Shown here in pieces: positions 27,045 to 51,587 of a stretch of DNA of 64,000 bases. The stretch lies in the IMG/VR virus record IMGVR_UViG_3300031673_000001. One strand, written 5' to 3'. The stretch is from a virus (lineage: Duplodnaviria > Caudoviricetes). The notes beneath the pieces are model-generated. The model was not told the origin of the DNA and searched no databases. It was given only the letters and a program-made list of their open reading frames with translations. The translations under genes and the position numbers were made by a program. How positions within the stretch are numbered: position 1 is the first letter of the stretch; the number at the start of each line of letters is the position of its first letter.

Positions 27045-27443
27045 TTATTCTCCTCCAGTGCCAGTACGCCTACGATAAGCGGCAACTTTTCTTGTTATTT
27101 GTGATATTCTATTACGTATTTCTAATCGTTTTTTTCTATATGAGTCAACAGCTGCATTGATTCCCTTTGAACATAATTTTGGATTACTTGCTTCCACACA
27201 TTGACTTCTTAATGTAATAATTCTTGCCAGAGCTTTATCAATAGCACCCATATGACAAGTTTCTTTACATAAATCTCTTACATATTTATTTTCTTCTCTC
27301 ACACATCTAGAATCATAACAATCAGTCCAATCCAAATTTTTTTGTCCTTTAATTCTAGCAATAGCTAATGTGGAACTGAATTCCTCTGATAAAAGCTCCA
27401 GCTTTTCATCTACAAGAACTTCAGCGTCATATAATTTAGACAT
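27045..27443 (-). CDS. Cys-rich virion-type protein (divergent member of the 4-Cys family)
   Basis: C...C...LRSQCVEASNPKLC pattern shared with 27454, 30542, 47002, 50700. Confidence 0.65.
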   Translation of the reverse strand: MSKLYDAEVLVDEKLELLSEEFSSTLAIARIKGQKNLDWTDCYDSRCVREENKYVRDLCKETCHMGAIDKALARIITLRSQCVEASNPKLCSKGINAAVDSYRKKRLEIRNRISQITRKVAAYRRRTGTGGE

Positions 27444-27453
27444 TATATTTTCC

Positions 27454-28128
27454 TCAATCTTGTATATAATTTAAATATTTTAAAATCTCTTCTTCTTTTA
27501 ACTTACTTTTATATTTTTTTATCTTCGCTTTAAGTTTATTTATTTTAGAATCCATTTTCTGAATACATTGTTTAGGATTTTTTGTTTCTTTACAATCTTT
27601 TTTCTTATTTTGAATTGCAGAAATATAATGTTCAGCAGCTTTTGATTTAAAACTATTTATACAATTTTCTTTATCATTGCCACTTCTTCCTTTACACGCT
27701 TTAGCTGCTTGAGAAAAGAATTTTTTATAAGCAACAATTCCTACTGCAACAGCAGAACCAACAAGCAAAGCGACTCCAATTCCGATAGCAATATTTTGAT
27801 CTAACCCCAAAATTTTATCAGCAGATGTTGTTTTTGAATGTGACCCTAATGGTATTTTATCTGCATCTTGCCATTTTTCATATGCTCCTCTTGACTTAAA
27901 ATATTTGCTTTGAGCTGTTCGTCTGGCGTCCTTAATTTTTTCATAGTTATCTTTCACAAATTTTATTACATTCTCATCACCAGTTTTTCTAGCATCTTGT
28001 AATACATGAGCTGTATTTCTTTCCTCTCTTTTTAAACTAATAAAATATCTAAAAAGACCATTTAATTTCTTTTCAGCTTCTGGATCATAACGACTCTCTA
28101 ATATATATTCAGTGATTGGATCTATCAT
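27454..28128 (-). CDS. TM plus 4-Cys domain protein
   Basis: TM helix then YKKFFSQAAKAC...C...C..TKNPKQC. Confidence 0.75.
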   Translation of the reverse strand: MIDPITEYILESRYDPEAEKKLNGLFRYFISLKREERNTAHVLQDARKTGDENVIKFVKDNYEKIKDARRTAQSKYFKSRGAYEKWQDADKIPLGSHSKTTSADKILGLDQNIAIGIGVALLVGSAVAVGIVAYKKFFSQAAKACKGRSGNDKENCINSFKSKAAEHYISAIQNKKKDCKETKNPKQCIQKMDSKINKLKAKIKKYKSKLKEEEILKYLNYIQD

Positions 28129-28141
28129 TATTTAGTTCTCC

Positions 28142-29158
28142 CTATTTTCCCATTCCTTTAACATCTGCAATAGTTCTAATAAGTAAACCATTGGCAACAG
28201 CAGTCAAAGGGTTTTTAGCTCGTCGAATCTCTGATACTTCAAATGGTAATTCTTTCTGCATAATTATTTGTCTAAATAAAGTTACAAATCCCTCTGGTAA
28301 AGAAGTTCCACCTGAAATTACAATTGGAATAGCATCATCCAATTCAATATCAGCTTTATCATTAAATTCTTTTATTATTTTTTTAATTGTATATTCAATC
28401 AATGCTTTATGATAATAAAATAAAGCTTCTAACATTCTTTTATCTTTTTTATTTTTAATGTTGACTTCGCCCTTTAACTTCATATACTTTTCTTTTTTAT
28501 TAGTAACTCTATTTACAACTACACCCATATCAGCAGCTACTTGTTCATCAATCCAATCTCCAGCTCTAGCTGTTGAAAATTTCAATACTTCAATACCTTT
28601 ATAAGCTATTGCAGCATTTGCCATACCAGCACCAAAACTAATACCAATTCCACTAAATTTTTCCTTTGCACACTCTGAAAATATAATTGCCATAGCTTCA
28701 TTTACAGATGTATGGTTAACACCCAAACTATTTAAAATTCTTGCAAATACACCTTCGTGATAAGTTATAGAACGTTCATTGTCAATGGACTCTGCTGGAA
28801 TTGAATATGAACAATACATATCTTTATCTTTTGTTTCACCAATCAAATCTTTAATAATCAATGTTAAAACATCAATAGCATTAATTTCCTTGGATGAAAT
28901 AAGACCCTTTTCCATAGGTCTTGAAACTTTTTGACCTAACATATTTGCTAACTCAAAAGCATGAGATCCAATCACATAAGTTTCACCTTCACTACTTTCA
29001 ACATAACTTATATCAGCAATATCTGGAATATCATCTTTATCTACTTCTAAAAATACATTTCTTGTCATTCTTATATCATCTGAATCAGATCTAGCACAAA
29101 CAATATTCATCGTACCAACATCGAGACCTATACAAGAAACCTTTGATTTCTCGCTCAT
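28142..29158 (-). CDS. Actin-like ATPase (MreB/MamK/ParM superfamily)
   Basis: Phosphate-1 IGLDVGT, connect-1 VNEAMA, phosphate-2 ISFGAGMAN, AGDWID, adenosine ISGGTSLP, connect-2 NPLTAVANG. Confidence 0.88.
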   Translation of the reverse strand: MSEKSKVSCIGLDVGTMNIVCARSDSDDIRMTRNVFLEVDKDDIPDIADISYVESSEGETYVIGSHAFELANMLGQKVSRPMEKGLISSKEINAIDVLTLIIKDLIGETKDKDMYCSYSIPAESIDNERSITYHEGVFARILNSLGVNHTSVNEAMAIIFSECAKEKFSGIGISFGAGMANAAIAYKGIEVLKFSTARAGDWIDEQVAADMGVVVNRVTNKKEKYMKLKGEVNIKNKKDKRMLEALFYYHKALIEYTIKKIIKEFNDKADIELDDAIPIVISGGTSLPEGFVTLFRQIIMQKELPFEVSEIRRAKNPLTAVANGLLIRTIADVKGMGK

Positions 29159-29745
29159 TTACGTCCTCCCAATAATTTTGATAATGATTTTGCAGCATTA
29201 TCAATTTCTTCTTTTTGATCTTGTTTTAAAGATCTAACAGAAGATGATTTCAATTTTAAACTATCAATATCAACTTCTGGAATAAAGGCAATATCATCTT
29301 CATCATCTCTTTCTTTAATTTTTTGATAAATTAATCCATTACCTTTTTGTTTCTTTAAGATTTCTTGTGACATTCGTTCGAGTTGATTTAGCTTTTCAGT
29401 AATTTGTTCTTTATTTGAATTTTCATTTCCTTTTACTTCTCGATGAAATAGCATCGAGATCATCTTTTCTAATTTATCAAATCGACTTTCAATCTGCTTT
29501 CTATATGGATCAATCTTTTTTTTCTTCTTTTTCTCTGGTGCAAAATCTTTTTCTCTATAAACTTCTCTATGACCTTTTTCATTTACAGCAACTATTTCAT
29601 ATTGACTTATTCCACACACTTGCAAATGACCAATAACTGTTCTTATTTCAATTCTCGAAACATCAATATCAGCGGGTGTTCTAAAAGGAGCTACACCTGG
29701 AATTTCAATCAAGTGACCCTTTTCCATAACTCTTAAAGTTATCAC
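29155..29745 (-). CDS. Hypothetical protein coupled to the actin gene (possible adaptor)
   Basis: ATGA overlap with actin; coiled-coil middle, charged tail. Confidence 0.65.
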   Translation of the reverse strand: MITLRVMEKGHLIEIPGVAPFRTPADIDVSRIEIRTVIGHLQVCGISQYEIVAVNEKGHREVYREKDFAPEKKKKKKIDPYRKQIESRFDKLEKMISMLFHREVKGNENSNKEQITEKLNQLERMSQEILKKQKGNGLIYQKIKERDDEDDIAFIPEVDIDSLKLKSSSVRSLKQDQKEEIDNAAKSLSKLLGGRK

Positions 29746-30533
29746 CTTAATTTTACCTTTGGAATTTTTCTCTTAAAATCGTTAATCATTCCTTTATATT
29801 TTATATCATCTTTTCTATACTTATGGTATGCTGTATATACAATCGCCAATGTTAAATTATATGCTGACTTTCCTAACCATGGAATAGATAAACCAAAAGC
29901 AGCTCCAGTTCCAAATAAAGTTATTAGCATCAATCCCTCAGGACTAGCAAACAATGTAACAAGAGAGTAACTTCCAACTAATGCTAATCCAATATCTGTA
30001 AAATTAAAATCATAATCTAAGTCACCAATAAAAGTCATATTCAACCAAAGATATAAAAGAAGACCAGCAATAACAACACCAGTAATTTTTTTAAGTATAG
30101 GATATTTATTTAAAACTTCATCAACCTTCATTACACCAGCTTCTAATTTTTGAAATACTCTAGTTTTATGAATTTCCTTAAAAACTTGTAACAAACCACC
30201 TCTTATTAATTTTGTAACCTCTCCAATACTTTTAAATATTAACTTAATATTGAATTTAAAAGCTTTAAACATACTATAAATATCTTTTTGTTTAAATGCG
30301 GAAACTAGTTCTGGAACTCCTATTTTAAAATCTTTTGCAATCTTACCAAGATTATATTTTAAATCACCAAATAGTCTCACAAGTTCCCTTGATAAACTCA
30401 TCTGTTTTATTCTATCAAAGAAACCTTCTGTTAACTGATTTGACATTACGAGATCGAACGCTTCACAATAAATCTCATAAGTTATAAAATCAAAATCTGT
30501 TTGAAGATATTCTAGATATGCTTCTGTTTCCAT
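29742..30533 (-). CDS. Membrane protein with N-terminal YLEYLQ motif
   Basis: Hydrophobic helices near the C-terminus. Confidence 0.65.
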   Translation of the reverse strand: METEAYLEYLQTDFDFITYEIYCEAFDLVMSNQLTEGFFDRIKQMSLSRELVRLFGDLKYNLGKIAKDFKIGVPELVSAFKQKDIYSMFKAFKFNIKLIFKSIGEVTKLIRGGLLQVFKEIHKTRVFQKLEAGVMKVDEVLNKYPILKKITGVVIAGLLLYLWLNMTFIGDLDYDFNFTDIGLALVGSYSLVTLFASPEGLMLITLFGTGAAFGLSIPWLGKSAYNLTLAIVYTAYHKYRKDDIKYKGMINDFKRKIPKVKLR

Positions 30534-30541
30534 GTTGATCC

Positions 30542-31399
30542 TTATTTCATCTTTGACTTAACTTTTGAAATTTTTTCATCTAATTTGTCACTACACTTTT
30601 GTGGATTTGGTGTTTTAACACAATAACTTTTAGCTTTTTGTAACATCTCAATCTGTTTTTTTCTACCAGCATTTTTAAATTTTTCAATGCATTTTGTTTT
30701 AGCTTCTCCTTTACTACTCTTACAAGCATCAACTGCACCACTTGCTTTACTTCTATATGCTGAAAATGCTCCAGCTACTGCCCAAGCTAATAGAACTCCT
30801 AATGCTATAGCAGTACGATTACTTATCTGATAATCTGTAGTTGCACTACTATATACTGTAACCCATTCTTTTAGATTTTCTAAATGTTCATCTACAACAT
30901 CATTATCTGAAAAATTATTATCTGGATCCATTGTAATTGACCTCCCTATATTTAAAGCTTTCTCAATTATTTTTCTTTGATCAGGCATGACCAACATACC
31001 AGCTTGTCCCACTTCCAAAATAAATTTATAATCACTATGCTCTTTTGATAGTCTAATTTTTTGATCTGGATTCAACATTCGACATAAAAAATTATAGCAG
31101 GTAGTTTGTCTTTCCCCTCTATCAGCTAAATAAGTAAATTTATCAATGTATTTAATAGGAGTTACATCTAAACCAGTTTCTTCCTTAACTTCTCTTTTTA
31201 AACATTTGATTATATCTTCACCAACAGGTTTATCACATTTTCCGCGAGGAAATTCCCAATGAAGTGGCCAATGATCATCTGCAGATCTCTGTATCAATAA
31301 TATCATTGTCTCACCATTTTCGCCTTCCTTCATTACAATTCCAGCAGCTGCTTTCATAAATACTTTTGGTTTATCACTTATCATCTTCCTTTTCCTCAT
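30542..31399 (-). CDS. NUDIX hydrolase fused to TM plus 4-Cys domain
   Basis: Nudix box FPRGKCD...CLKREVKEETGL; C-terminal AC..SKG..KTKC...C.KT.NPQKC. Confidence 0.85.
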   Translation of the reverse strand: MRKRKMISDKPKVFMKAAAGIVMKEGENGETMILLIQRSADDHWPLHWEFPRGKCDKPVGEDIIKCLKREVKEETGLDVTPIKYIDKFTYLADRGERQTTCYNFLCRMLNPDQKIRLSKEHSDYKFILEVGQAGMLVMPDQRKIIEKALNIGRSITMDPDNNFSDNDVVDEHLENLKEWVTVYSSATTDYQISNRTAIALGVLLAWAVAGAFSAYRSKASGAVDACKSSKGEAKTKCIEKFKNAGRKKQIEMLQKAKSYCVKTPNPQKCSDKLDEKISKVKSKMK

Positions 31400-31883
31400 C
31401 TAACATAAGACTTAAAACTTCCATCTGTCTCGGTGTTATTTTATTTGGATAACAACTCAAAGGAACTTTAACAAATTCAATTTTAGCTGTTTTCTCTAAT
31501 AATGCATCTAATTCTTTTTGTTTATTCTTAACTCCCTCAATATATTTAGAATGTTTTTCATCAACTATTTTCATCTCACCTATAAACAAGTTTTTATTAT
31601 TTCCAGTAAATACAAAATGACCCCGACCATCAATTGGTGACTTTTCACTTTTGAAATTTTTTTGTTCATCTCTTTCAGCATATTTTTCAATTACTGCCAT
31701 TCGATCATTTCTATATTCCTCCCCACCTTCTATGGCAGTTAAAGAAAGCTTTTTAACCTCATCAAGCTCATATAATCCAAGAGCAATATTTTTCATAACA
31801 GCAAAAGAAAACTCAGGAGTTGCTTCAACATTTTCAATCTTTTTCAACTCGTTAACAAATTCTAATATACTTTCTAACTTCAT
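31374..31883 (-). CDS. Hypothetical phage protein
   Basis: ORF track; AAGGA RBS. Confidence 0.65.
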   Translation of the reverse strand: MKLESILEFVNELKKIENVEATPEFSFAVMKNIALGLYELDEVKKLSLTAIEGGEEYRNDRMAVIEKYAERDEQKNFKSEKSPIDGRGHFVFTGNNKNLFIGEMKIVDEKHSKYIEGVKNKQKELDALLEKTAKIEFVKVPLSCYPNKITPRQMEVLSLMLDEEKEDDK

Positions 31884-31905
31884 TTTTATTCCTTTCTTTA
31901 AAAAA

Positions 31906-31980
31906 TCCTATAGTAGCAGGAACTCGAACAATTCAAGACCGATCAGGTGTGCATGATTCACCTGTCCTACTACCATAGGA
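31906..31980 (-). ncRNA. Structured three-way-junction RNA element, copy 1
   Basis: 16-bp outer stem with two G-U pairs only on the minus strand, enclosing two hairpins. Confidence 0.55.
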
Positions 31981-31988
31981 AGATTAAA

Positions 31989-32061
31989 TCCTATGGTAGT
32001 GAGAACTTGACCAATTCAAGTCAATGCCAGGGTGCTTGATTCCCTGCTCACTACCATAGGA
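31989..32061 (-). ncRNA. Structured three-way-junction RNA element, copy 2
   Basis: Perfect 15-bp outer stem; same loops as copy 1 (AATCAWGCA, TTGAATTG); stems covary. Confidence 0.55.
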
Positions 32062-32075
32062 AATTATATTCTACT

Positions 32076-33134
32076 TTATCTTGACAATTTCCAATTCAGT
32101 TTATAATTCGCACTATCTATTAAGTTATCAAATGCTACTACAAATCCATCTACTGTTTTACTTGTAACCATATATTGATAAAATGATGGAGATGGATCAG
32201 TTATATTTTCTAACGTACAGACTGGATGATAATCTTCATCCACTTGTGCTACTACAAATACTACTGCTACTGATGTTGAATCGCTTGAGATATCTTCTAC
32301 ACCACCAATAAACTCATCAACTGTATAACTTGTCAACCACAAACCTGATGTTGAATCCCAAGTAAGTATCGACCCTTCAACTGTTCCAGTAACGTTTACA
32401 TCAGCTAATAGATTTAAATCACCAAAAACTGATGGATATACAAGAATTGATCCATTCACTCCTGATATAATAACAGTTCCTACAAATCCTTTATAATATG
32501 GACTAGGTGGTGGACTATCTCTTAGACCTCCTGGTATTGATTCTGAAACCCATAAACCTGCTCCTTCTGCAAATGTACTTGTATTAATATTACGTACCAT
32601 TCCTAAAAGAGTTATATAGCCATTATTATTATTATCAATACTATGAGTTGCTACTCCTATTCTCTTAATAATTTTCTCTTGTGCAATCGCTTGCGATAAA
32701 TCAACTGTTGGAGTTTGTCCACTTGATCCATTAATATAAACAATTTGTCCACTAAGAATATCACTACCTGTTAAATTCCTAACTCTCACATGCATTTCTT
32801 GACCAACCTGTAAAGTAACATCTGAAACATCATTATATAATCCCAACGTATTTGAACTATCATCCCAGAATACACGACCTCTATTCCAAGATGGAACAAC
32901 ACCATCTGTTTTAAAATCCGTATACTCTATATCTGTTAAACGTTCTACACTAATTTGTAAAACTGAAGTCCCATCATATGTTAATCTAACATTATCAGTT
33001 CCCAATTTACTAAATTCACTCAATAATTGATCTACAGTCACTTTTATTGAAGTATCAGATTGTGACATTTCCATTAACTCGGAACCATTTAATGGAATTG
33101 TTGGATCATTTAATTCTATAATTTTTTTTGCCAT
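32076..33134 (-). CDS. Putative tail-fibre/virion structural protein
   Basis: Beta-rich; VRVRN.TG..I..G..VYI.G, IGVAT..I..N..GYIT..G.VRNINTS pattern seen in phage fibres. Confidence 0.55.
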   Translation of the reverse strand: MAKKIIELNDPTIPLNGSELMEMSQSDTSIKVTVDQLLSEFSKLGTDNVRLTYDGTSVLQISVERLTDIEYTDFKTDGVVPSWNRGRVFWDDSSNTLGLYNDVSDVTLQVGQEMHVRVRNLTGSDILSGQIVYINGSSGQTPTVDLSQAIAQEKIIKRIGVATHSIDNNNNGYITLLGMVRNINTSTFAEGAGLWVSESIPGGLRDSPPPSPYYKGFVGTVIISGVNGSILVYPSVFGDLNLLADVNVTGTVEGSILTWDSTSGLWLTSYTVDEFIGGVEDISSDSTSVAVVFVVAQVDEDYHPVCTLENITDPSPSFYQYMVTSKTVDGFVVAFDNLIDSANYKLNWKLSR

Positions 33135-33149
33135 TATACTATCCTCTTA

Positions 33150-34505
33150 TTATAATACCCTTATATCATCATCATCTGTTAATCTTACTTCTCCATTATC
33201 TGTTAATCTTATTTCAGAAGCTAAACTAGAACTAAAAGAACTAGAACTTAAACTTGAGATACTGATTGATATGGAACTAGAACTTGATGAATTAATATCT
33301 TCATATACAAACAGTTCTAAAAACCAACCTGCTTCAAGTGTAACATTTGCCATTTTAATTCTCAACGTATTTCCATTGCTGACAATTAAAAAATGATCTC
33401 CATAATTCAACTCTCCATACCTTGAATTAACAACTAACATCAATCTATTAGTTATCTGCTCTGGTATTGTAATATCTAAATATGTTTCTTGTGCAGCATC
33501 TGTTGCTGTAACCTCATGAAAATATCTAGTCTTAAAAATATAATCTCCCACATTATCTATTTCACAAGTTGCATCTGAAGGGTCGAGATATGTAATACTA
33601 TTATTTGATGTTTCATCCAATCCCCAATCCCAATGATAATCATATAACTGTCTATTAACGGGAGGTTGATAGTCATTATATGCTGAATATGCTGAACCAT
33701 ATCTCAATTCTAAATTAACATTTTCAGCTAAATAATCTGACTCTAAAATAAGATAATTTGGTATTTCAATTTCATAATTAATAGTTGAAGTTAATCTCCA
33801 TTCAGCTATTTTATCTGGACCACCATATCTATTACTTGCATCTGACATATTAACTAATGAAATTTGTGGTTTAATATTTAATGGCAAAACTACTTCATTT
33901 CTAGCTGTTGATCTCACTAATTGATTTGAGGCATTTGCTGTTGTCCAATCTATATTATAAGTCATACCAGTATACTCATTACTATACTCATATGTCAAAA
34001 ATGAATCTGGTAGAATAATAAATGATGAAAAGAATCTAGGATAGATAATTCTATCCGTTCCACCAAAATAATTAATCAGCATGAGTCTTAAATCACAATA
34101 TTCATAAAAGCTATTCAACATCATTATCAACTCAAACTCACCCTTTATCCTTATAAATCCAGCATGCATAATTAAATGATCATCCTGGTATATAGGATTA
34201 AAAAGTCGTTTGATCATTGTAGGAGCTAAATTTGGATATCTCCACAATTGCCTACCACCAGCATTTCCATCTGCTGGAGAGAAGTCCCCAGAAGGATTTA
34301 AAATTAACGCAGGTAATAGAGGTTGATCTGTTTCTCTATCATATTGTGCTCTTTTCGCCAAATACTCTACAGCTTTGTCATAGGTTCCCACAACTCTATA
34401 TTCAAATCGAGGATAAAGGGTTGTACTGAAATAATCCAACATATCCTTAAAAAAATGACCGAATACATTATGTATAAAATGATATGTTTCCCTAGTTTGT
34501 GCCAT
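33150..34505 (-). CDS. Putative virion structural protein with C-terminal Ser-rich tract
   Basis: 451 aa; GAGG RBS; SSSSSSISISISSLSSSSFSSS then RLTD repeats. Confidence 0.55.
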   Translation of the reverse strand: MAQTRETYHFIHNVFGHFFKDMLDYFSTTLYPRFEYRVVGTYDKAVEYLAKRAQYDRETDQPLLPALILNPSGDFSPADGNAGGRQLWRYPNLAPTMIKRLFNPIYQDDHLIMHAGFIRIKGEFELIMMLNSFYEYCDLRLMLINYFGGTDRIIYPRFFSSFIILPDSFLTYEYSNEYTGMTYNIDWTTANASNQLVRSTARNEVVLPLNIKPQISLVNMSDASNRYGGPDKIAEWRLTSTINYEIEIPNYLILESDYLAENVNLELRYGSAYSAYNDYQPPVNRQLYDYHWDWGLDETSNNSITYLDPSDATCEIDNVGDYIFKTRYFHEVTATDAAQETYLDITIPEQITNRLMLVVNSRYGELNYGDHFLIVSNGNTLRIKMANVTLEAGWFLELFVYEDINSSSSSSISISISSLSSSSFSSSLASEIRLTDNGEVRLTDDDDIRVL

Positions 34506-34544
34506 TTATAAATCCTCATATTGAATTCTATATATAAATACTAA

Positions 34545-35153
34545 TCAAACATCTGATAGTTTAATTGTTTTATCTCTATTTATCTTATCAGTAAAATCAC
34601 TCCTTCCTGCCCATCTTTCACGGTGATAATCGTCAAGCATTTCTAGTGAAGGACTTGTGGCAATCTGTAAACCGCTAGTTCTAACAATTTTTTTTCCTAA
34701 TCTTTTTTGAATATTGTGACGTTCAGTTAAAATAAAAATAAAATCTTCCACATAGGAATTCATTGTAAATCCATAAATATTTAAACAATCAAATACACAC
34801 TTATCTTCAATATCTACTTTAGATAAAACAATAGACTCATTAAAAACAAAAATTATATCACTTGTATATTCCGGTTTAATTCTTTCAAATTGATTTGAAA
34901 TGTCCAAAGTATTCTTTCTAAAATTATGAAGATCAATGAATGTTTCACAAAACTTGGAAGATTCTAAATTTTTGAACATACCTACTTTTACATTTCTTTT
35001 ATAATCATCTCCTTGAGAAAAATCTGGGTCAAGTCTAAAAAGTAAAAATGTAGATCTTTTATCAAAGTACACCCCTATGTTATAAAATCCTTTCAAAATA
35101 GAAATTCTAATATTGTAACATCGGTTAAAAGACTTTCCTAATTTTAATGACAT
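34545..35153 (-). CDS. Hypothetical protein
   Basis: ORF track; GAGGGG RBS. Confidence 0.65.
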   Translation of the reverse strand: MSLKLGKSFNRCYNIRISILKGFYNIGVYFDKRSTFLLFRLDPDFSQGDDYKRNVKVGMFKNLESSKFCETFIDLHNFRKNTLDISNQFERIKPEYTSDIIFVFNESIVLSKVDIEDKCVFDCLNIYGFTMNSYVEDFIFILTERHNIQKRLGKKIVRTSGLQIATSPSLEMLDDYHRERWAGRSDFTDKINRDKTIKLSDV

Positions 35154-35170
35154 TCGTAATTCCCCTCTTC

Positions 35171-37123: not shown

Positions 37124-37205
37124 TTACTAATTCTCCTTTCTTGGATTTACTCTATTATTTATTTGTTACTTACAATAATTGAATAGACTCAATTGTTAGG
37201 ACTTC

Positions 37206-37264
37206 TCCCCCACCGGTGGGGATGTGCTCACCTGGTGCCCGCAAGGGCAGAAAGGTGGAAGCAC
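37206..37264. other. GC-rich palindrome plus GNRA-capped stem-loop
   Basis: CCCCACCGGTGGGG (37208-37221); GTGCT/CACCT/TGCCC-GCAA-GGGCA/AGGTG/AGCAC (37224-37264). Confidence 0.6.
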
Positions 37265-38668: not shown

Positions 38669-38689
38669 ACTATATATATTAATTAATGA
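38669..38689 (+). promoter_or_regulatory. Variant of the 22-nt promoter-like motif
   Basis: ACTATATATATTAATTAATGA upstream of the helicase at the main strand switch. Confidence 0.5.
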
Positions 38690-40862: not shown

Positions 40863-40876
40863 AAAGGAGTTTTTGA

Positions 40877-41866: not shown

Positions 41867-42153
41867 ATTGGAAGAAATTGAAATTTTGGAAGACAAATGA
41901 ATATAAATTTCCTTGTATTAACTGTTTTGTTAGACCCATTTGTAATCTTTCAAAATCATGTGATAAATTAGAATTGAATGAAAATAAACTTAAAGATTTA
42001 TTTTCAAAATATAAATGTTGTGTTGACTGTGGATCTAAAAAATTTATTGAAGGTCCAAGTGGTGGAATGATAACAAATTTTAAATGTGCTGGTTGTGGTC
42101 ACTGGTTTAATATGGCATTGCCATTATTTATTCAAAGGATTCGAATGCCATGA
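41863..42153 (+). CDS. Zn-finger protein
   Basis: PCINCFVRPIC; C.DCG...NFKCAGCG. Confidence 0.65.
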   Translation: MNWKKLKFWKTNEYKFPCINCFVRPICNLSKSCDKLELNENKLKDLFSKYKCCVDCGSKKFIEGPSGGMITNFKCAGCGHWFNMALPLFIQRIRMP

Positions 42154-43130: not shown

Positions 43131-43146
43131 AAGGAGACAAATACTA

Positions 43147-43536
43147 ATGAATTATATTGTTGAAAGATTACAAGAAGTTTTTGAATCCACAATTGAATCA
43201 GATCAGACATACGCTGGACCCGTTGAAACTATTGACTATTACTCATTATTTTGTAAAGCAGCATCTAATAATAATTTGTATAAATTAATGGGAAATAATT
43301 TTTGTATGTTTAAATGTGGTTATAAGGGAAAAGATGCAATTATGACAATGTTCTCGATACCAATTAATAATCAAGATGAATCTCCGGGAGCAAAAAATGT
43401 TGCAGAAAGAATTATGGAAGTAGTTGAACATTCAGAAAAATATTTTATTACAATTGACAGTATGAGATCCGAAGAGGTGAAAGAAGATAAATTTGTATAT
43501 GTAACTATGATTAAAGTTTTGGAAGGAGGAATTTGA
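43147..43536 (+). CDS. Hypothetical protein
   Basis: AAGGAG RBS. Confidence 0.65.
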   Translation: MNYIVERLQEVFESTIESDQTYAGPVETIDYYSLFCKAASNNNLYKLMGNNFCMFKCGYKGKDAIMTMFSIPINNQDESPGAKNVAERIMEVVEHSEKYFITIDSMRSEEVKEDKFVYVTMIKVLEGGI

Positions 43537-43769
43537 TGAATAGACAGCGAAGTAAATGGATTCAGAGACTTTTTATTGCAATGGATCCAGGTTTGATTCT
43601 TTCTATGAATAAAATCTATGGAGATGAAGACACTAAACTACAACCAAGAAAATTACATCGAAGAGCAAAAAGAATGTGGAATCAACATGATCCATCAACT
43701 AAAACTTGGGGTAAAATGTCACAAGTTAAAATGAAAGGAGTTAGAAATGACAGAAGAAGCAACAGATAG
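43533..43769 (+). CDS. Small basic hypothetical protein
   Basis: ORF track; AGGAGG RBS. Confidence 0.55.
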   Translation: MMNRQRSKWIQRLFIAMDPGLILSMNKIYGDEDTKLQPRKLHRRAKRMWNQHDPSTKTWGKMSQVKMKGVRNDRRSNR

Positions 43770-44532
43770 AAGTTTTAATCTAGATCAAGAACAATTTGGG
43801 CATTTTATTAGATGTCTGAATAATATAAAAGAAATATGTAATGATATTGATATTCGTGGTGGAATTGTTCGACAGAGAAGTAATGATCGTTCATGTATCT
43901 TTGAATTTGATATGCAAAATATTTTTACCGATATTTCCATGCCAATTTCAGATATTAAAAAGAAATTAGATTTGTTGAAATCGTTTGTAGGACAACAGGA
44001 TATTAAATTTGATATTCATACTGAAGGTCAAGAATCAGAATCCTATTTTATAATTTCAGATCAAATCTCTTCAATTAAATTTATGTTTCCAGCAATACAA
44101 TTCATTGATAATAATTTTATGACTCAAGCAGAACTTGATAGTGTTTTATCCATCAATGAAGAAGAACTTCTTTTAGAAACCAAATTATCAACTTTAATAA
44201 CTGATAGAATTAGAATCATCACAGACAATTTTAATTGTCCAGCTATTCAAGTTGTATTCAATGAGCAAACAGCATCAATTCAAACCCAGACTCAATCAAA
44301 AGATCAATATGCAGTATTTATGAAAGATATACCAACTAATATTATTCTTGAACCTTGTGCAGTTAATTTAGTAACAATGCTTTTTAAAATGGAGCATGAT
44401 ACACAGGTTGATTTTAATATGTATAAGGATTCTGAAAGAGCAATTACAATAAATAAATTAGAAACAACTATTGGAGATATTGAAGCTAGAATCTATTCAA
44501 GATCTTCAGTTGTTCCATTAGATGAAGAATAA
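43747..44532 (+). CDS. Sliding clamp (PCNA / T4 gp45-like)
   Basis: 261 aa two-domain size; IRQRSNDRSCIFEFD resembles clamp N-terminus; near clamp loader. Confidence 0.65.
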   Translation: MTEEATDRSFNLDQEQFGHFIRCLNNIKEICNDIDIRGGIVRQRSNDRSCIFEFDMQNIFTDISMPISDIKKKLDLLKSFVGQQDIKFDIHTEGQESESYFIISDQISSIKFMFPAIQFIDNNFMTQAELDSVLSINEEELLLETKLSTLITDRIRIITDNFNCPAIQVVFNEQTASIQTQTQSKDQYAVFMKDIPTNIILEPCAVNLVTMLFKMEHDTQVDFNMYKDSERAITINKLETTIGDIEARIYSRSSVVPLDEE

Positions 44533-44559
44533 TAGAAGATATGGTTATGAGGTAAAATA

Positions 44560-45687
44560 ATGCATCCAAGTTCTCTATTAAGCTATTATCCCACATATAA
44601 TATATTAGATCAGATTGTTTCATATAATGATTATAAGAAATTAAATATTTTTATTGATTTAAAAAATACTTTGCAAACTACCTATATGGAGCATGCAATT
44701 GTAAATATAATCCAGAATTCAAAGAATACAAAATATGTGGATACTTCAATTTTTTCATCTGTAGTTTCATTTTTAGCATTCCATAAAATCTATGCGATGA
44801 AAAGAGGAATTGAAGTTAATTTTATTATTTTCTTTGAATCTGGAAACTCATCTTATCATAAAAACATATCAAAAAAATATAAAATATCTAGAAAGATTGA
44901 TGACTTATACGGACTTGATAGAGAAGATAGGGAATTATTCTATAATGTTTTAATGAAAAATTTTCAATTGATTGAAAAATCTTTGAATATGATGCCTTCA
45001 GTTACAGTTATTCGTTTGCCAGGGTTAGAAGCTGATTTTATTCCATATTATCTATTGAGTCGTGGTCATATTGCAGTTGACGGTTCTGTCTGTAATATAA
45101 CATATTCAAATGATCACGACTTATGGCAATGTGCTGCTAATCATTCTTATATTTATTCCAAATCAGCAAAATCTAGAAAAATTATAAAAGCAGGAACTAT
45201 CATGGATCTCATTTTGAAAAAACCAAATAATATTCCTGATATTTATGCTCCATTAGCTATGGCAGTCATAGGAGATCCAGGAGATGATATTGACGGAATT
45301 AATGGAGTTGGTCCAGTGGGTTTTCTTGAAATCTTTGATCAGTTAATTGCTTTAACTGGAACGATGGGAGAAATATACAAAAAACTTCAAAAGAATGAAG
45401 ATTTGTTTAAAGTAGTACCTATTAAAGTAGTTAATAAAAAATTAGATAAAGTTATTAAACAAGAAATTAAAACAAAAGTTTTATCAAAAGCTATTAAACT
45501 AATATCATTTGAACTGCTTTCTATAGCATTAGATGATCCAAATACAACAGAAATGTTAGATAAGAGAAACCTAATAGAAAAGAGAATGTCAGAGAAAAAA
45601 ATAGTTCCTTTGGAATCAATGAAAGTCGCTTTAATAAAAAGTGGAGTTTTTCTAGAAGAAAACTCAATAGAATATTTATATATTTAA
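44560..45687 (+). CDS. 5'-3' exonuclease / RNase H (FEN, T4 rnh-like)
   Basis: FIDLKN, EADFI, SNDHDLWQ, H3TH GDPGDDIDGINGVGP. Confidence 0.88.
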   Translation: MHPSSLLSYYPTYNILDQIVSYNDYKKLNIFIDLKNTLQTTYMEHAIVNIIQNSKNTKYVDTSIFSSVVSFLAFHKIYAMKRGIEVNFIIFFESGNSSYHKNISKKYKISRKIDDLYGLDREDRELFYNVLMKNFQLIEKSLNMMPSVTVIRLPGLEADFIPYYLLSRGHIAVDGSVCNITYSNDHDLWQCAANHSYIYSKSAKSRKIIKAGTIMDLILKKPNNIPDIYAPLAMAVIGDPGDDIDGINGVGPVGFLEIFDQLIALTGTMGEIYKKLQKNEDLFKVVPIKVVNKKLDKVIKQEIKTKVLSKAIKLISFELLSIALDDPNTTEMLDKRNLIEKRMSEKKIVPLESMKVALIKSGVFLEENSIEYLYI

Positions 45688-45738
45688 CCAACTTCATTTT
45701 AGAACAAATTAAAAATATGATGTATAGGGGACAATTAA

Positions 45739-46458
45739 ATGCTAAATAAATCAGAAGTGTTAGAATATGTAAAGTCCAATCTAGGTTTTCCTTTTATGCA
45801 TCTTGAGTTAGAAGATGAACAAATACTGGAATATATAACTAAAAACACTCGAAAGACATTCTCTTATTATATTCCACAGAAAGTAATGACCTCATTGAAT
45901 ACTACAGTTGAGTCTAACAAGGTGCCTGGAAAAGGAAATGAATATTATATTACTGAACCAGATGGTATGGAGATATTAAATGTAGTTGATATTTACACAA
46001 CATCTGGTGAACTTTATATGTTTGGTCATCCACCAATGGGAGTGTTTTCACATTTTGAGTTGAGAGAATGGGCACTATCCGTGAGTATGGCAATGGATAC
46101 TAAAATGTTTTCTTCATTTGATTATACATTTGAGTTTAAACATCCTAATGTTATAAGAATTTCTCCTCTAACATCTGCACTTGGTTGGGTTGCTGTTGAA
46201 TATGAAAGAATGCAACCTGAGGATTTATCTGGAATACCCAATGATATTCAACTAGATTTTAAAAATCTAGCACTTGCAGATGTTATGATGGTTATTGGTA
46301 GGATTCGAAAAAGATATGGGGGAGGGACTCTTAGAACTCCATTTGGGGAGATTCCTCTTGAATCAGATGTGTATGATGAGGGGAAAGAGTTAAAGAGAGA
46401 GATCATTGAAAAATTAGAAAGATTATTCATCCCAAATGTGAGAATTGATTTTGGATAA
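45739..46458 (+). CDS. Neck protein (T4 gp13-like)
   Basis: LEYVKSNLGFPFMHLELEDEQI matches recalled gp13-family N-terminus. Confidence 0.7.
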   Translation: MLNKSEVLEYVKSNLGFPFMHLELEDEQILEYITKNTRKTFSYYIPQKVMTSLNTTVESNKVPGKGNEYYITEPDGMEILNVVDIYTTSGELYMFGHPPMGVFSHFELREWALSVSMAMDTKMFSSFDYTFEFKHPNVIRISPLTSALGWVAVEYERMQPEDLSGIPNDIQLDFKNLALADVMMVIGRIRKRYGGGTLRTPFGEIPLESDVYDEGKELKREIIEKLERLFIPNVRIDFG

Positions 46459-46475
46459 AAAAAGGATATTATATA

Positions 46476-47009
46476 ATGTCGAAAGCAAATGAAGTTATTA
46501 GAGCTGAACAGGAAGAATGTACAATTGAAAAGAAATGTTTATCAGACCCCAAGTTTGTTGGATTAGATTTGTCTTATACTGGCACTGGCGTAATTGTGCT
46601 TGACAACGACGGACAAATTTTAGAACAAAAACTTATAAGCACTAATGCTAAATCTGATACGGAGGATAGAATAATAGAAATTCAGAATGAAATTAAATTT
46701 ATTCCAACGATAGTAGGATTGAGCAGTGTTTTTGTTGAAGGACCTTCTTATTCAAGTAGAGGGGATCAAATGATTCAAATGGGTGCTTTAAATATTTTTA
46801 TACGAATTTTTTTTCGTAAAAAAAATATAAAATTTAGAGTAATAGCTCCACAGACACTCAAAAAATGGGTGGCTGGAACTGGGAGAGCTGCAAAGGAAAT
46901 GATGTTACTCCACGTATATAAAAGGTGGGGAATTGAGTTTGAGGATAATAACTTAGCAGATGCCTATGGATTGGCACGAATGTCAATGGAGGAAGAAAAA
47001 AATGAGTAA
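46476..47009 (+). CDS. ruvC: RuvC-like Holliday junction resolvase
   Basis: VGLDLSYTGTG, VEGPSY, APQTLKKW.AG.G.A.KE, NLADAY. Confidence 0.85.
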   Translation: MSKANEVIRAEQEECTIEKKCLSDPKFVGLDLSYTGTGVIVLDNDGQILEQKLISTNAKSDTEDRIIEIQNEIKFIPTIVGLSSVFVEGPSYSSRGDQMIQMGALNIFIRIFFRKKNIKFRVIAPQTLKKWVAGTGRAAKEMMLLHVYKRWGIEFEDNNLADAYGLARMSMEEEKNE

Positions 47010-47706
47010 AGTTGATACACTATTACAAGAGATTTATGTAGACATGATGTTAGAAGAAGCTGATGAGTTCATTGAAAATTTTGAGTTAGGACTTGTCACA
47101 GAAGCAGATACTTGGGCAAAAGTAGCTCAAACCAAACAACAGTATATGGCCATGGTAGATAAAGCTAGAGAAGCAAAAGCAGCTGGCAATTCTGATCTGT
47201 ACAATAAGCTTATGGCACAGGTAGGTAAGTTAAAAGAAAAATGGGAAGAATTAAAAACATTGGCCAAAGGTGCTGCCAGTTCTGCAGCTACAAAAGGTAG
47301 TGAATTAGTGACTAAAGCTCAAGGAGCAGTTGCTGGTGCTACTCCAGGTCAAAAACTTATGGTTGGTGGTGCTGCTGCTGCTGTTGCTGCTATTGCTGCT
47401 GGTGTTGTAATTTATAAAAAGTTCTTTAGTCAAGCAGCTAAAGCGTGTAAAGGCAAATCAGGTCCCGACAAGAAAAAATGTCTGGCAAGTTTTAAAGTTA
47501 AGGGACTACAAGCAGCTAAATCAAAAATTCTTGCTGGTATGTCTAAATGTAAAGATGACAAGTGTAAAGCAAAACTAAAAGCTAAAGCTCAAAGTTTTGA
47601 TGCAAAGATCAATTCTATGAAAGGTGCAGTCGCAGAAGCTGTTATCAATGAATATGTTGGTGAATATATTTCCGAGTTGTTTCTAGAAGGTCTAGAAAAA
47701 AACTAA
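47002..47706 (+). CDS. TM plus 4-Cys domain protein, acidic N- and C-terminal peptides
   Basis: Start 47002 from GGAGG RBS (track start 46960); YKKFFSQAAKACKGKSG.DK..C. Confidence 0.75.
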   Translation: MSKVDTLLQEIYVDMMLEEADEFIENFELGLVTEADTWAKVAQTKQQYMAMVDKAREAKAAGNSDLYNKLMAQVGKLKEKWEELKTLAKGAASSAATKGSELVTKAQGAVAGATPGQKLMVGGAAAAVAAIAAGVVIYKKFFSQAAKACKGKSGPDKKKCLASFKVKGLQAAKSKILAGMSKCKDDKCKAKLKAKAQSFDAKINSMKGAVAEAVINEYVGEYISELFLEGLEKN

Positions 47707-47744
47707 TCGAGACAGTCTCGTATGAACCCAAAAAGGGTGATACG

Positions 47745-48107
47745 ATGTACTGTCAGATATGCGGGAGAAAAGCGCATTGTCTGAATAATGGCAAAGGTCC
47801 TCTCATTTGTTGTGGAAAACCGATGACGAAATCATTAGTAGCTGAAGCTGAAGGATGGGTCGGTTTTCCCAAGGGATGGACAGACAGCAGCGTTGAAAAA
47901 TTTGGAAAAACACTTGTTAAGGGTGGTGCAACCAAAAAGAATTTTTTTGATAAGTGCGTCGAAAAAATGAAAGATAAAGTTGACAATCCACAAGGATTTT
48001 GCGCTGGGTTGAAGGATGAAGCTCATGGTTCAACACACTGGCGAGGGAAGGGAAAGACATCCCAACAAGTACGTAAAGATGTTAAGGCGCATCAAAATGT
48101 TACATAA
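47745..48107 (+). CDS. Desulforedoxin-like rubredoxin domain fused to a basic helical domain
   Basis: CQICG...GKGPLICCGKPM (CxxC...CC). Confidence 0.65.
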   Translation: MYCQICGRKAHCLNNGKGPLICCGKPMTKSLVAEAEGWVGFPKGWTDSSVEKFGKTLVKGGATKKNFFDKCVEKMKDKVDNPQGFCAGLKDEAHGSTHWRGKGKTSQQVRKDVKAHQNVT

Positions 48108-48115
48108 GGATATCA

Positions 48116-49246
48116 ATGCTCAAATATATCACCATAATAATAATATTTGTATTGATGCTTTTCGCATGTAGTGATAAAAAGAGTACGGATCCTATTACAA
48201 ATGATGGAAAGAAATGGAGAATAGGATATTATGAAGGTGGTCCTTATAAAGATTATCAGACATATTTTATAGCATTAGTAAAGGGATTAGAGAAATTAAA
48301 ATGGATACCTGAAGTAAATATTCCAAAACGTATTGGCAATAGCGATAACAGAGAAATATGGGATTATCTTTCAAAAATTGATAGTGAATATATAGAATTT
48401 GTAAAGGAAGCTTATTGGTCAGCTGATTGGTATGAGGAAAAACGGGATATTAATAAGTTAAATGCTATTGTTTATCTTCAAAAGAAAAAGCTCGATTTAA
48501 TAATAGCTGCAGGAACATGGGCAGGATTAGATCTAGCAAATAATAGTCATCAAATACCAGTTATAGTAATATCTAGTAGTGATCCTGTTAGAGCTGGTAT
48601 TATAAAGAGTTGTAAAGATTCTGGATTAACTAACGTTTATTCTCCTTGTGATCCTGAACAATATGTAAGACAAATAAGAGTTTTTCATAATATTGTAGAG
48701 TTTAAAAAATTAGGTATTGTATATGAAGATACACCAGAGGGTAGAATTTATGCATCTTTAGATGATGCAGATATAGTCGCTAAAGAAAAAAATTTTGAAG
48801 TAATTACCTGTATAGCTAGAGATTACAATCAAACTGATTATGAATCAATGCTACTTATGTATAAATGTCATGAAGAATTAGCTACTAAAGTCGACGCTCT
48901 ATATATAACAGCTCATCGAGGAACAGATCCTAAATTTATGCCAAAGGTATTGGAACCCTTATTTAAATATAAAATTCCAACATTCGCACAAGAGGGTCCC
49001 GATCAAGTTGAATGTGGAGTGATGCTGAGCATCGCCAGGAGTGATGAAGAAAATAGAGGTCTGTTCAATGCTACTACAATAGCAAGAATATTTAATGGAG
49101 AAACTCCAAGAAACATTAGTCAAATATTTAAAGAAGAAAAAAGAATAGTTATAAACCTGGAAACAGCAAGAATTATTGGATATAAAATTCCTAAATCCAT
49201 CATAGATGCTGCAGATTATACATATAAGAAGATAGAAAATGATTAG
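48116..49246 (+). CDS. ABC-type substrate-binding lipoprotein
   Basis: Lipobox LFAC; WRIGYYEGGPY, SDPV.AGI, VINLETA..IG. Confidence 0.85.
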   Translation: MLKYITIIIIFVLMLFACSDKKSTDPITNDGKKWRIGYYEGGPYKDYQTYFIALVKGLEKLKWIPEVNIPKRIGNSDNREIWDYLSKIDSEYIEFVKEAYWSADWYEEKRDINKLNAIVYLQKKKLDLIIAAGTWAGLDLANNSHQIPVIVISSSDPVRAGIIKSCKDSGLTNVYSPCDPEQYVRQIRVFHNIVEFKKLGIVYEDTPEGRIYASLDDADIVAKEKNFEVITCIARDYNQTDYESMLLMYKCHEELATKVDALYITAHRGTDPKFMPKVLEPLFKYKIPTFAQEGPDQVECGVMLSIARSDEENRGLFNATTIARIFNGETPRNISQIFKEEKRIVINLETARIIGYKIPKSIIDAADYTYKKIEND

Positions 49247-50687
49247 AAAGAAATCAACATATAAGATTCTATTTGCATCATTCTTATTTGGAATTGCATT
49301 CTGGATACTTCAAAGCATTCAATATTATTTTTTATTTACTGAAAGAATAAGATTTTTAATTTTTCAAGCTCCTATGTCATTTATGGATTCTTTAATTTTT
49401 AATATTCCCCCCAATGATTTAATTGTTAGACTTTCATTTATATTAGCGTGTCTTATAGCAGGTATCTTAACAGCTAGATTTTTATATATTATACAAAATA
49501 GAACAATTGAACAAGAGAATCTAAAAATACAACTTATTCAATCTCAAAAAATGGAAACTGTTGGGGTATTAGCAGGTGGAATGGCGCATGATTTTAACAA
49601 TCTTTTAACTACAATATCAGGATATACTCAATTAATTATTTATGATAAGTCCGAAGATCATGAAGATTATAGTAAATTGCAAAAGATTATAAATTCTGTT
49701 GAAAGAGCTAATGAGATAACATCTAGATTACTTACACTTGGATCTAAAGTTCAAACCCAAAAAAAAATTATTAATTTAAATAATAGTATTGTAGAGTCAC
49801 TAAAATTATTAACCAGCACTATATTTAAAATGATTGAGATTAATAATTTTTTAGAAGATGCTCCTCAAATAATTGAAGCAGATTCTGGGCAGATTCAGCA
49901 AATTATAATGAATCTAGTTATAAATTCTAGAGATTCTATGCCAAATGGGGGCAAAATAACTATAACTACAGAAACTGTAACATGCCCAAAAGAATGTATA
50001 ATAAAACAAAAAAATTATAGCAATACCAGTACCTTTCCTAAGAGTGGAGATTATGTATTACTTAGTATTAAGGATAACGGGGGCGGAATTCCAAAAGAAG
50101 TAATAGATTCTATTTTTGATCCATTTTTTACTACCAAACAAATTAATAAAGGTACAGGTCTTGGTTTAACAATGGTTTATGAAATTGTTAAGAACCATGG
50201 AGCATACATAATATGTTACAGCACAGTTGGAGAAGGAACCACTTTTGAGATATATTTTCCATTGAGTAAAAAAGAAATTGAACCAGAACAATCCAGTGTA
50301 TTTATTGAAACAAAAAGTGGTAGTGAAACAATCCTGGTAATTGATGATGAAGAAAATATAAGAGATATAACCAAAACTGCGCTTAATAGAAAAGGTTATA
50401 ATGTATTTACTTCTTCTACTGGAGAAGATGGTTTAGATATTTATAATAATAATAAAGTAGATTTAGTGGTATTGGATATTATTATGCCTGGAATGGGAGG
50501 AATAAAATGTCTTTCTAAACTTCTTGAAATAAATTCTAAAGCTAAAGTTATTGCAATTAGTGGGTTTTCCAATAAAAACTCAAATGATTTCCTTAAATTG
50601 GGAGCAAAAAGATTTGTTTCAAAACCGTTTGATATTAATTACTTGCTTTTAGAAATTCGAAATACTTTGGATCAAAAAATTAAGTGA
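49239..50687 (+). CDS. Membrane hybrid sensor histidine kinase (HisKA-HATPase-REC)
   Basis: Two TM segments; AHDFNN H-box; NLVINSRD N-box; FTTK...GTGLGL; [18 protein letters not shown]. Confidence 0.93.
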
Positions 50688-50699
50688 GGATAAATTATT

Positions 50700-51587
50700 A
50701 TGCCAAATTTTGACTATGCCAAACTTTATGATAATGCTCGTACAAATGTGGGTTTGATAAAAACATACTTGGGCAAACTTAATGGTTTATTAGTTCGAGC
50801 AAAAGAAACTGGCGATAAAAAATTAATAGATAAAGTTGAAAAAGGTATTCAGCATACAAGTAAAGTATTGAAGAATGGAACGAAAAAACTTGATGATATT
50901 AAACTAGGAACTTCTCATAAACCTACTGGAGCTAAACCTTTATCTTCAGTTCCAGTTCCAAAATTATTACCACAAACTCCAAAATCCGCTCCTCGTGAGT
51001 TTGATAATGTGCAACTTGTTGCATTTACTGGTGCAGCAATAGCTTTTACAGCTATAGTAGCATCTGCTATTTTATATAAACGATTTCTTAGTAGAGCTGC
51101 CAAAGCTTGTACAGGACAAAAAGGATTTCAAAAAGAAAATTGTATGACAAAGTTTAAAATAGCAGGTTATGAAGCTTCTGTAAAGTCATTACAAAGAAAT
51201 TTACCAGATTGTTCTCAAGCACAAGATCCTTTTAAATGTAAACATAAAATTCAAGATAAAATTGTTTCATATGCTGCCAAGATAAGAAAGCATAAAAAGA
51301 AATTAAGTGAAACTACATCTATGAATTTTCTTAATGGTTATTTAGAATATCTAAATGAAGATAGAGGTATTAATCTTCCAATTGAAGCAGATAATAAACC
51401 AAACTATATTAGAATCTGTATGATGCAAGAGGATGATAGAGTTAAAATTAGATGCCTTAGAAAATTAAAAGAGATAACAGCAATGAATCCATTTTATCAA
51501 TATCGTATTGATAGATTTGTTGATGCAATTACTAATACTTATGAAGCAACAAGAGAACCTGGATTCAATGAGTATAAAAATGATTGA
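50700..51587 (+). CDS. TM plus 4-Cys domain protein
   Basis: TM then YKRFLSRAAKAC...KENC...C...DPFKC; internal YLEYLNE. Confidence 0.75.
   Translation: MPNFDYAKLYDNARTNVGLIKTYLGKLNGLLVRAKETGDKKLIDKVEKGIQHTSKVLKNGTKKLDDIKLGTSHKPTGAKPLSSVPVPKLLPQTPKSAPREFDNVQLVAFTGAAIAFTAIVASAILYKRFLSRAAKACTGQKGFQKENCMTKFKIAGYEASVKSLQRNLPDCSQAQDPFKCKHKIQDKIVSYAAKIRKHKKKLSETTSMNFLNGYLEYLNEDRGINLPIEADNKPNYIRICMMQEDDRVKIRCLRKLKEITAMNPFYQYRIDRFVDAITNTYEATREPGFNEYKND

Follow-up and report, generated by a model that had tools for sequence, protein, structure and literature searches.

In a stretch of 64,000 nucleotides from a tailed virus (Duplodnaviria; Caudoviricetes; IMG/VR record IMGVR_UViG_3300031673_000001), hereafter the window, five open reading frames (ORFs) are paralogues of a large unnamed protein family that shares a cassette of about 95 residues, in which an Ala/Gly-rich hydrophobic helix runs into a basic helical domain with four cysteines. 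So far the family is found only in metagenomes, and its carriers appear to be uncultured T4-like jumbo phages. As the best explanation of the data, we propose with a probability of roughly 0.45 that the cassette is a tag of virion proteins that are packaged into the particle and ejected on infection in this T4-like lineage. An earlier note on the same DNA had described the five genes as a dispersed family in which a transmembrane helix and a four-cysteine domain are fused to different N-terminal cargoes, and had proposed a modular membrane-anchoring or oligomerising tag on virion-packaged proteins or, alternatively, a mark of an internal membrane or early-infection vesicle.

The window is gene-dense, with a GC content of about 30%, and its coding strand is the minus strand up to ~38.6 kb and the plus strand beyond. 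Inspection of the five ORFs, termed copies A to E (Table 1), confirmed the positions and the signature given in the earlier note: copies B, C, D and E contain a 19-residue hydrophobic stretch, followed by Y(K/R)xxxSxAxxAC and then by four cysteines, with a spacing of 10/22/8 except in D, where it is 10/22/4. Copy A, whose orthologue is the family member P0085, is divergent and lacks the helix; its cysteines follow the pattern C-x4-C-x11-C-x3-C, then x18-C-x8-C, which amounts to a core C-x11-C-x22-C-x8-C with two extra cysteines. Pairwise BLASTP among B-E gave E values of 8e-4 to 1.5e-22, and a profile built from metagenomic homologues, when scanned against all six-frame ORFs of the window, returned exactly five matches (E 9e-33, 2e-30, 1e-26 and 7.5e-24, and 2e-6 for copy A at model positions 41-94, window 27129-27290), with the next ORF at E 0.24. 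Thus, the resemblance of the five copies exceeds chance. The sequence YKKFFSQAAKACKG is identical in B and D, as previously noticed for two distant copies; at the DNA level, near-identity of these two is confined to a 42-nt core and they have diverged elsewhere, for which reason a recent duplication was rejected. Copies B and E are homologous along ~200 residues with 29% identity, so that the N-terminal parts are not all different cargoes as had been assumed, although that of copy C is indeed a NUDIX domain according to Pfam. For copy D, whose orthologues are P0008, P0012, P0013 and P0016, an alternative upstream ATG at 46960 is possible.

A profile of the five copies, which the earlier note had suggested as a check, was searched against 1.84 billion representatives of 50% identity clusters and recovered at least 1,540 of them at a threshold of E ≤ 1e-3, a number that drops to 764 for E ≤ 1e-10. 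Among the best 150 members, the cysteine spacing is exactly 10/22/8 in 119, the cassette is nearly always C-terminal, about 15-20 residues ahead of the stop, and the preceding N-terminal parts range from 0 to more than 500 residues without any Pfam domain being found in them. The consensus consists, in this order, of an A/G-rich helix, YKRFFSKAAKAC, xGKSGxEKTxC, MxKFKxxAxxAQIxxLxxxxxxC, xKSKNPxKC and a basic helix. An aromatic/basic stretch, YK(R/K)FFSxAAKAC, directly continues the Ala/Gly-rich hydrophobic helix; the chain then passes through a first short loop into a long Lys-rich helix and through a second one (KxKNPxK) into the third helix, which is basic, and each loop is bracketed by two invariant cysteines, one on either side. 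Across the family, the median isoelectric point (pI) of the basic domain is 10.2. No model of Pfam, PHROGs or NCBIfam covers the cassette and a sequence search of the PDB with the cassette profile gave no match; the cassette is undescribed in the libraries searched. Likewise, PF12699, the internal head family of phiKZ and SPN3US, was matched neither by the five copies nor by the 150 family members. The huge phage LR745208 has the actin-like Volactin gene in common with the window and carries no cassette copy, and one scan of prokaryote genomes with the narrow pattern RFFSKAAK revealed no relative.

The modular character of the cassette, as postulated in the earlier note, is best seen in copy C. 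Its N-terminal part matches PF00293 with 60.6 bits against a cut-off of 21.1 (residues 17-133, window 31001-31351), and the RE-x2-EE core of the Nudix box (REVKEETG) is intact, with the first Gly of the box shifted by two residues; in NCBIfam, the closest models are MutT-like, with scores below their own cut-offs. In the syntenic relatives L026 and L073, NUDIX orthologues that are 53-55% identical over residues 3-178 occur without the cassette. The orthologue in L073 stops just past IEEYLRIIQGG, in L026 an unrelated 115-residue domain follows after LEEYLNLLQEE, and in the window the cassette comes after VDEHLENLKEW, the junction in all cases being of the YL-x-x-L-Q-E type. At the position of copy B after the Volactin gene, both relatives carry the cassette on a different N-terminal domain. 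At the level of the sequences, the cassette is therefore swapped modularly between proteins, as a C-terminal unit behind varied N-terminal parts.

A scan of IMG/VR yielded 68 loci with family members, and thirteen large contigs were found to carry 2-9 copies each, two of them complete with terminal repeats (277 and 312 kb). Carrier relatives with enough sequence encode a T4-type Gp23 capsid protein and a Peptidase_S77 prohead protease, an assignment that refers to these relatives, as the head genes of the window genome lie outside the window. The head operon of L012/G001 comprises the portal, an acidic 297-residue protein, a family member (180 residues), the S77 protease, a second member (136 residues), two coiled-coil proteins and the major capsid protein, the counterpart of the T4 head order 20-67-68-21-22-23. 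Member P0034 directly follows an S77 protease, P0057 lies two genes upstream of Portal_T4, and L074 contains two partial members just upstream of the portal as well as degenerate helix-plus-Cys ORFs around the protease. In G003, G005, G007 and G008, a baseplate operon runs from a tail-tube-like protein through 2-4 members, the baseplate hub, a gp25-like wedge and a further member to a gp6-like wedge; in the T4 order 25-26-51-27-28-29-48-54, gp28 and gp29 stand at the place of the members. The gene context in these relatives is hence that of virion operons. Together with T4-like targeting or cleavage motifs, this context supports virion proteins, as the earlier note had proposed; the internal membrane or early-infection vesicle found no support in the T4-type relatives examined (Gp23 and S77), in which a nuclear-shell protein was not looked for. 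The name 'moraphages' has been given to large phages of aquatic origin that possess several core glycosyltransferases and for which Bacteroidota are the predicted hosts (PMC12619734, 2025).

Many members begin with short acidic peptides such as DPITEYILE, YLEYLQE or LLQEIY..MEMEE. The first 12-13 residues of copy B also head the otherwise unrelated members P0128 and P0006 with 85-92% identity, and because of this recurrence on unrelated members the N-terminus appears to act like a signal. In T4, internal proteins (IPI, IPII, IPIII) and the enzyme Alt are loaded via an N-terminal capsid-targeting sequence (CTS), which is trimmed by gp21 (PMC3012670, PMC9026906); residues 4 and 7 of the CTS serve capsid targeting, residues 8 and 10 gp21 cleavage, and Alt, which starts with MELITE, loses 7 residues (PMC9026906). 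The motif E-[FY]-I-x-E ends at residue 11 in copy B and at residue 10 in T4 IPII/IPIII (MKTYQEFIAE); where the motif is internal, it has the form Y-L-E-Y-L-Q-E. Copy B fits the CTS decapeptide pattern (aromatic, I/L and Glu at 7, 8 and 10), and copies A and D have acidic leaders with LxE. Both enrichment and placement of the motifs were evident: [LI]xE occurs within the first 12 residues of 36% of the members compared with 12% of other ORFs from the same loci, and Y[LI]xx[LI][QN][EDT] has five occurrences among the proteins of the window where 0.3 would be expected, four of them at a protein end (N- or C-terminal) or at the boundary between domains.

An AlphaFold2 model of the copy B cassette, calculated with a 119-sequence alignment, predicts helices at 3-36, 42-73 and 77-97 (mean predicted local distance difference test score 86.6; predicted template modelling score 0.73), with the hydrophobic helix packed into a three-helix bundle, Cys 37 and 48 flanking the first loop and Cys 71 and 80 the second. 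Fold searches with this model by Foldseek against the PDB and BFVD and in the ESM Atlas gave generic three-helix bundles or nothing significant, and a wide VIA-align search reached a best Z of 8.4, the background level for helical models. Across the family, the loop lengths vary (8-11 and 4-9 residues) and the C2-C3 spacing is fixed at 22; a truncated relative keeps C1 and C2 and has lost C3 and C4 together; and extra cysteines stand in hairpin register, as a second pair in copy A (C-x4-C ... C-x3-C) and in a small 100-residue ORF of L074 (C-x3-C-x12-C-x3-C). Taken together, these observations suggest that C1 pairs with C2 and C3 with C4, thereby stapling the helix turns. It is a reasonable inference from sequences and model that the pairs are disulfides, which the earlier note had considered probable, given the cysteines at both helix turns, the loop variation and the variants that resemble twin CX3C; a role as zinc or other metal ligands is the alternative.

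The hydrophobic helix of B-E reaches Kyte-Doolittle values of 1.9-2.5 and estimated insertion energies of -0.5 to +0.7 kcal/mol, and by this measure these four helices fit the transmembrane label they had been given. Family-wide, however, the helix is marginal, with 29% Ala and 12% Gly, a median estimate of +3.3 kcal/mol and 12% of helices at or below 0.5; some subfamilies have Asp or Lys within it, and copy A lacks it. Furthermore, P0002, P0004, P0006 and P0007 contain the helix-plus-4-Cys unit 2-3 times, connected by acidic (L/I)xE-rich linkers in a polyprotein-like manner. Owing to the marginal helix, its charges, the multi-unit members and the export that an anchored NUDIX domain would face, a classical anchor in the producing cell is not the easiest reading; the data agree better with a marginal helix kept shielded until a later stage.

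For the packaged and ejected tag, we infer packaging, protease cleavage, disulfides, ejection and membrane or DNA binding in the following form. The cassette would mark proteins that are built into the particle interior, be it the prohead core, the tail/baseplate lumen or both, with acidic tags of the T4-CTS type (Y-L-x-Y-L-Q-E or E-Y-I-L-E) helping to load them and the T4-type S77 prohead protease cutting the tags after (L/I)-x-E. The two cysteine pairs would hold the helix turns together, probably by forming disulfides when the particle is outside the cell, and keep a compact basic domain (pI ~10) beside the DNA. On infection, cassette proteins would exit together with the DNA, after which the greasy helix and its aromatic/basic collar would come to lie within or upon the inner membrane of the host, or else the domain would remain on the DNA; the NUDIX hydrolase of copy C would then become active at an early stage in the newly infected cell, comparable to Alt and the internal proteins of T4. 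An extended version, which we regard as improbable and which has no described counterpart in T4, would make the cassette a general, redox-switched delivery tag of the whole lineage, by which any fused protein is brought into the particle interior and later expelled together with the DNA. Its two disulfides would keep it compact in the extracellular particle and open in the reducing cytoplasm of the host, so that the Ala/Gly helix with the aromatic/basic collar enters the inner membrane, where it would anchor the incoming genome end or a cargo such as the NUDIX domain at the entry site; in that case, the cassette may cooperate with a short T4-like acidic peptide that works at either terminus.

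Several known systems invite comparison. The T4 internal proteins and Alt are alike in that the carrier lineage has a T4-type capsid protein and an S77 protease, the short acidic tags show an aromatic residue, I/L and E at matching spacing, the mature parts are basic, the cargo is highly variable and includes an enzyme, and the genes are scattered outside the head cluster as the cassette genes are. Unlike the cassette family, they lack the 95-residue C-terminal unit with its hydrophobic helix and four cysteines, no sequence homology connects the two, and the tag motif of the cassette family is also found at C-termini and between domains. With T4 gp67 and gp68, the family has in common that members adjoin the prohead protease in L012/G001 and that an acidic N-terminal half is combined with a basic C-terminal half, as in gp68; however, gp67 and gp68 themselves have neither a hydrophobic helix nor cysteines, and most head operons of the relatives are without a cassette member. 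T4 gp29 and tape measures resemble the members in being helical with a hydrophobic segment, and members lie between tail-tube-type and hub genes in four relatives, but homology is absent and the cassette members are much shorter, multi-copy and also present in head operons. The heads of the giant phages phiKZ and SPN3US hold large paralogue families, PF12699 (family A) and a family B of ~20 members (PMC5694885). These are similar in that each genome has many paralogues, whose number varies, that the propeptides contain protease motifs and that ejection is suspected, and differ in phage lineage, in their protease motif A/S-x-E and in PF12699, which is absent from the cassette family; moreover, they were found in particles by mass spectrometry, whereas the cassette family, which differs from the T4 internal proteins in this respect too, is known from genes alone. 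A structural parallel may be seen in the twin-Cx(n)C helix-hairpin proteins (CHCH, small Tim), in which cysteines stand on both sides of a helix-loop-helix turn. Copy A and the 100-residue ORF of L074 resemble twin CX3C, yet there is neither homology nor a fold match above background, and the cassette has one pair per turn instead of two.

A number of observations weigh against packaging and ejection. The hydrophobic helix is unusual among T4-type internal proteins, the resemblance of the tags to the T4 CTS amounts to only 4-5 residues, and copies C and E have no N-terminal tag. No member was found in the head operons of G002, G003 and G005, three of the four inspected in large relatives; P0103 sits among nucleotide-metabolism genes; and the window copies are dispersed among the actin-like gene, a glycan cluster and replication genes, outside any recognisable operon of head or tail genes. 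Within the window, copy D is located two genes after a 'virion structural protein' (phrog_18911, E 4e-36). The box of T4 late promoters, TATAAATA, is neither enriched in the window nor placed upstream of the genes, and it gives no clue to expression timing. Comparison by hhalign gave a probability of 0.1% for the cassette profile against gp68 and of 0.2% for 20 full-length members against gp29, and three cassette queries run by tblastn against 50,697 GenBank phage records of cultured phages returned no match.

Among the rival explanations, the one with most in its favour, although we still consider it rather unlikely, sees the members as single-pass inner-membrane proteins of the infected cell, with the helix as a true anchor, the basic 4-Cys domain on the cytoplasmic face and the N-terminal parts thereby kept at the membrane, where they might anchor assembly, serve in exclusion or in the timing of lysis, or tether the actin-like filament encoded nearby. 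It accounts for the hydrophobicity of the B-E helices and their insertion energies near 0, for the conserved Y-K-R-F-F collar and the 5-6 Lys/Arg after the helix, which resemble a cytoplasmic interface, and for the place of copy B directly behind the Volactin-type actin, which is found in two relatives; in addition, T4 proheads assemble on the inner membrane (PMC9026906). What speaks against it is the helix itself, marginal family-wide, charged in several subfamilies and missing from copy A, and the topology it would impose, because proteins with 2-3 units would end up with identical basic domains on both membrane faces. If the basic domain were inside, N-terminal parts of up to 190 residues, including the NUDIX domain, would have to be exported without a signal peptide, although a NUDIX hydrolase needs cytoplasmic nucleotides; with the NUDIX domain inside, a strongly basic flank would end up outside.

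The baseplate operons raise another option, namely that the members reside in the tail lumen or the baseplate hub, where they accompany or replace the tape measure, are expelled first when the tail contracts, and build or line with their helices a channel through the inner membrane of the host. The tandem of 2-4 members between the tail-tube-like gene and the hub/gp25-like genes is the only synteny kept across four jumbo genomes, T4 gp28/gp29 occupy the corresponding place, gp29 also has a hydrophobic segment in mid-protein, and weak similarities to tape-measure or minor-tail proteins were seen; nevertheless, we regard it as unlikely, since hhalign detected no relation to gp29, the members are short (130-420 residues) and many are encoded in other places, head operons among them, the fold searches led to generic three-helix bundles, and an enzyme cargo would be unexpected inside a tail tube. 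Somewhat more doubtful still are prohead core, scaffold or DNA-condensing internal proteins that are not delivered for a function in the host, with hydrophobic helices bundling into the core and basic domains neutralising DNA. Such a role would agree with members that adjoin the protease where T4 has gp67/gp68/gp22, with the gp68-like combination of an acidic N-terminal and a basic C-terminal part, with the pI of ~10 and with the packing of the hydrophobic helix in the AlphaFold model. The fusion to an intact NUDIX enzyme, in contrast, suggests that an activity is delivered, an essential scaffold should vary less in copy number and position, with three head operons lacking a member, and no homology to gp68 was detected.

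How proteins of the particle interior enter giant-phage particles, and what they do, is mostly not understood, and the cassette is among the commonest unnamed protein modules of a widespread uncultured T4-like jumbo lineage, in which it is shuffled between cargoes. Should packaging and ejection hold true, the set of injected proteins, including candidate anti-defence enzymes such as the NUDIX hydrolase, would become readable by sequence, the capsid-targeting principle of T4 would extend to a new and larger signal, and a handle for packaging foreign proteins would be at hand. If it is instead a membrane anchor of infected cells, the cassette would still define a large new family of phage membrane proteins.

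Table 1 Coordinates of the five cassette genes, their parts and neighbouring genes in the window.
Feature	Coordinates	Strand	Remarks
Copy A, 132 aa, divergent, without hydrophobic helix	27045-27443	-	six Cys
Copy B, 224 aa: T4-CTS-like N-terminal tag, helical N-terminal part, cassette, C-terminal YLNYIQD	27454-28128	-	profile E 9e-33
Copy B, N-terminal tag MIDPITEYILE	28096-28128	-	
Copy B, cassette (residues 109-206): hydrophobic helix, YKKFFSQAAKAC, two basic helices, four Cys	27511-27804	-	
Copy C, 285 aa: NUDIX hydrolase, junction motif, cassette	30542-31399	-	
Copy C, cassette (residues 194-285)	30545-30820	-	profile E 1e-26
Copy C, junction VDEHLENLKEW at the NUDIX domain/cassette boundary	30863-30895	-	
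Copy D, 234 aa: acidic leader MSKVDTLLQEIY.., helical part, cassette, acidic C-terminal tail	47002-47706	+	
Copy D, cassette, second loop C-x4-C	47347-47616	+	profile E 7.5e-24
Copy E, 295 aa: N-terminal part homologous to copy B, cassette, junction, extra C-terminal domain	50700-51587	+	
Copy E, cassette	51018-51290	+	
Copy E, junction GYLEYLNED	51339-51359	+	
Copy E, extra 2-Cys C-terminal domain	51363-51584	+	common to P0005 (92%), P0024 (60%)
Neighbour gene with tag motif alone (METEAYLEYLQTD), several hydrophobic segments, no cassette	29742-30533	-	
Small Cys-rich basic protein, 120 aa, Desulfoferrodoxin-N-like Cys4 knuckle and basic tail	47745-48107	+	PF06397 E 1.6e-7
Neighbour gene with tag motif alone (MKLLEIYLYFLQE)	51621-51947	+	

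Besides the two neighbours with a tag motif alone (Table 1), the ORFs at 63197-63889 (+) and 31374-31883 (-) start with an acidic N-terminal tag of the YL-x-YL-Q-E or LxE type and have no cassette. If the tags are read correctly, these four genes are further candidates for particle-loaded proteins.

On the plus-strand side, copy D follows a RuvC-like gene, a position that is kept in L035. The small Cys-rich protein encoded next to it has a C-x14-C with an NP turn in its basic tail and possibly acts as a partner of the cassette proteins, given that cassette genes adjoin its homologue in L035 and L013. In L035, the homologues of copy D, of this small protein and of copy E are nearly adjacent, and a solute-binding lipoprotein and hybrid histidine-kinase pair at 48116-50687 (+) is absent from this otherwise collinear relative; in view of the near adjacency of the flanking genes, the pair looks like a recent insertion. 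Amid replication genes, the ORF at 45739-46458 (+) encodes 239 residues with a match to phrog_18911 and a weak match to a head-tail adaptor, which indicates that virion genes are interspersed on this side of the window.

Copy B lies just downstream of the actin-like Volactin gene (28142-29158, -), and the order of a partner (196 residues), the Volactin-type actin and a cassette protein is kept in L026 and L073, so that a link of the actin-like filament with copy B is possible. A TTATATATATAG box is present on the minus strand at 4353-4364, 7698-7709, 10592-10622 and 38670-38681, with a variant near 34530. In the intergenic regions upstream of minus-strand operons, seven matches with at most one mismatch were counted against 1.8 expected, and none was found upstream of the plus-strand replication genes; the box may define a class of promoters for the block in which copies A, B and C lie.

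Two relatives carry enlarged versions of conserved genes. The Volactin-type actin homologue of L026 (7114-9369) comprises 751 residues versus 338 and includes a block of ~400 residues with HNH and Hint-like motifs, probably an intein. The T4-type portal of L074 (10252-13308) has 1,018 residues with an inserted endonuclease-like block, which is probably an intein as well, and the head operon of this relative also contains free-standing homing-endonuclease-like ORFs.

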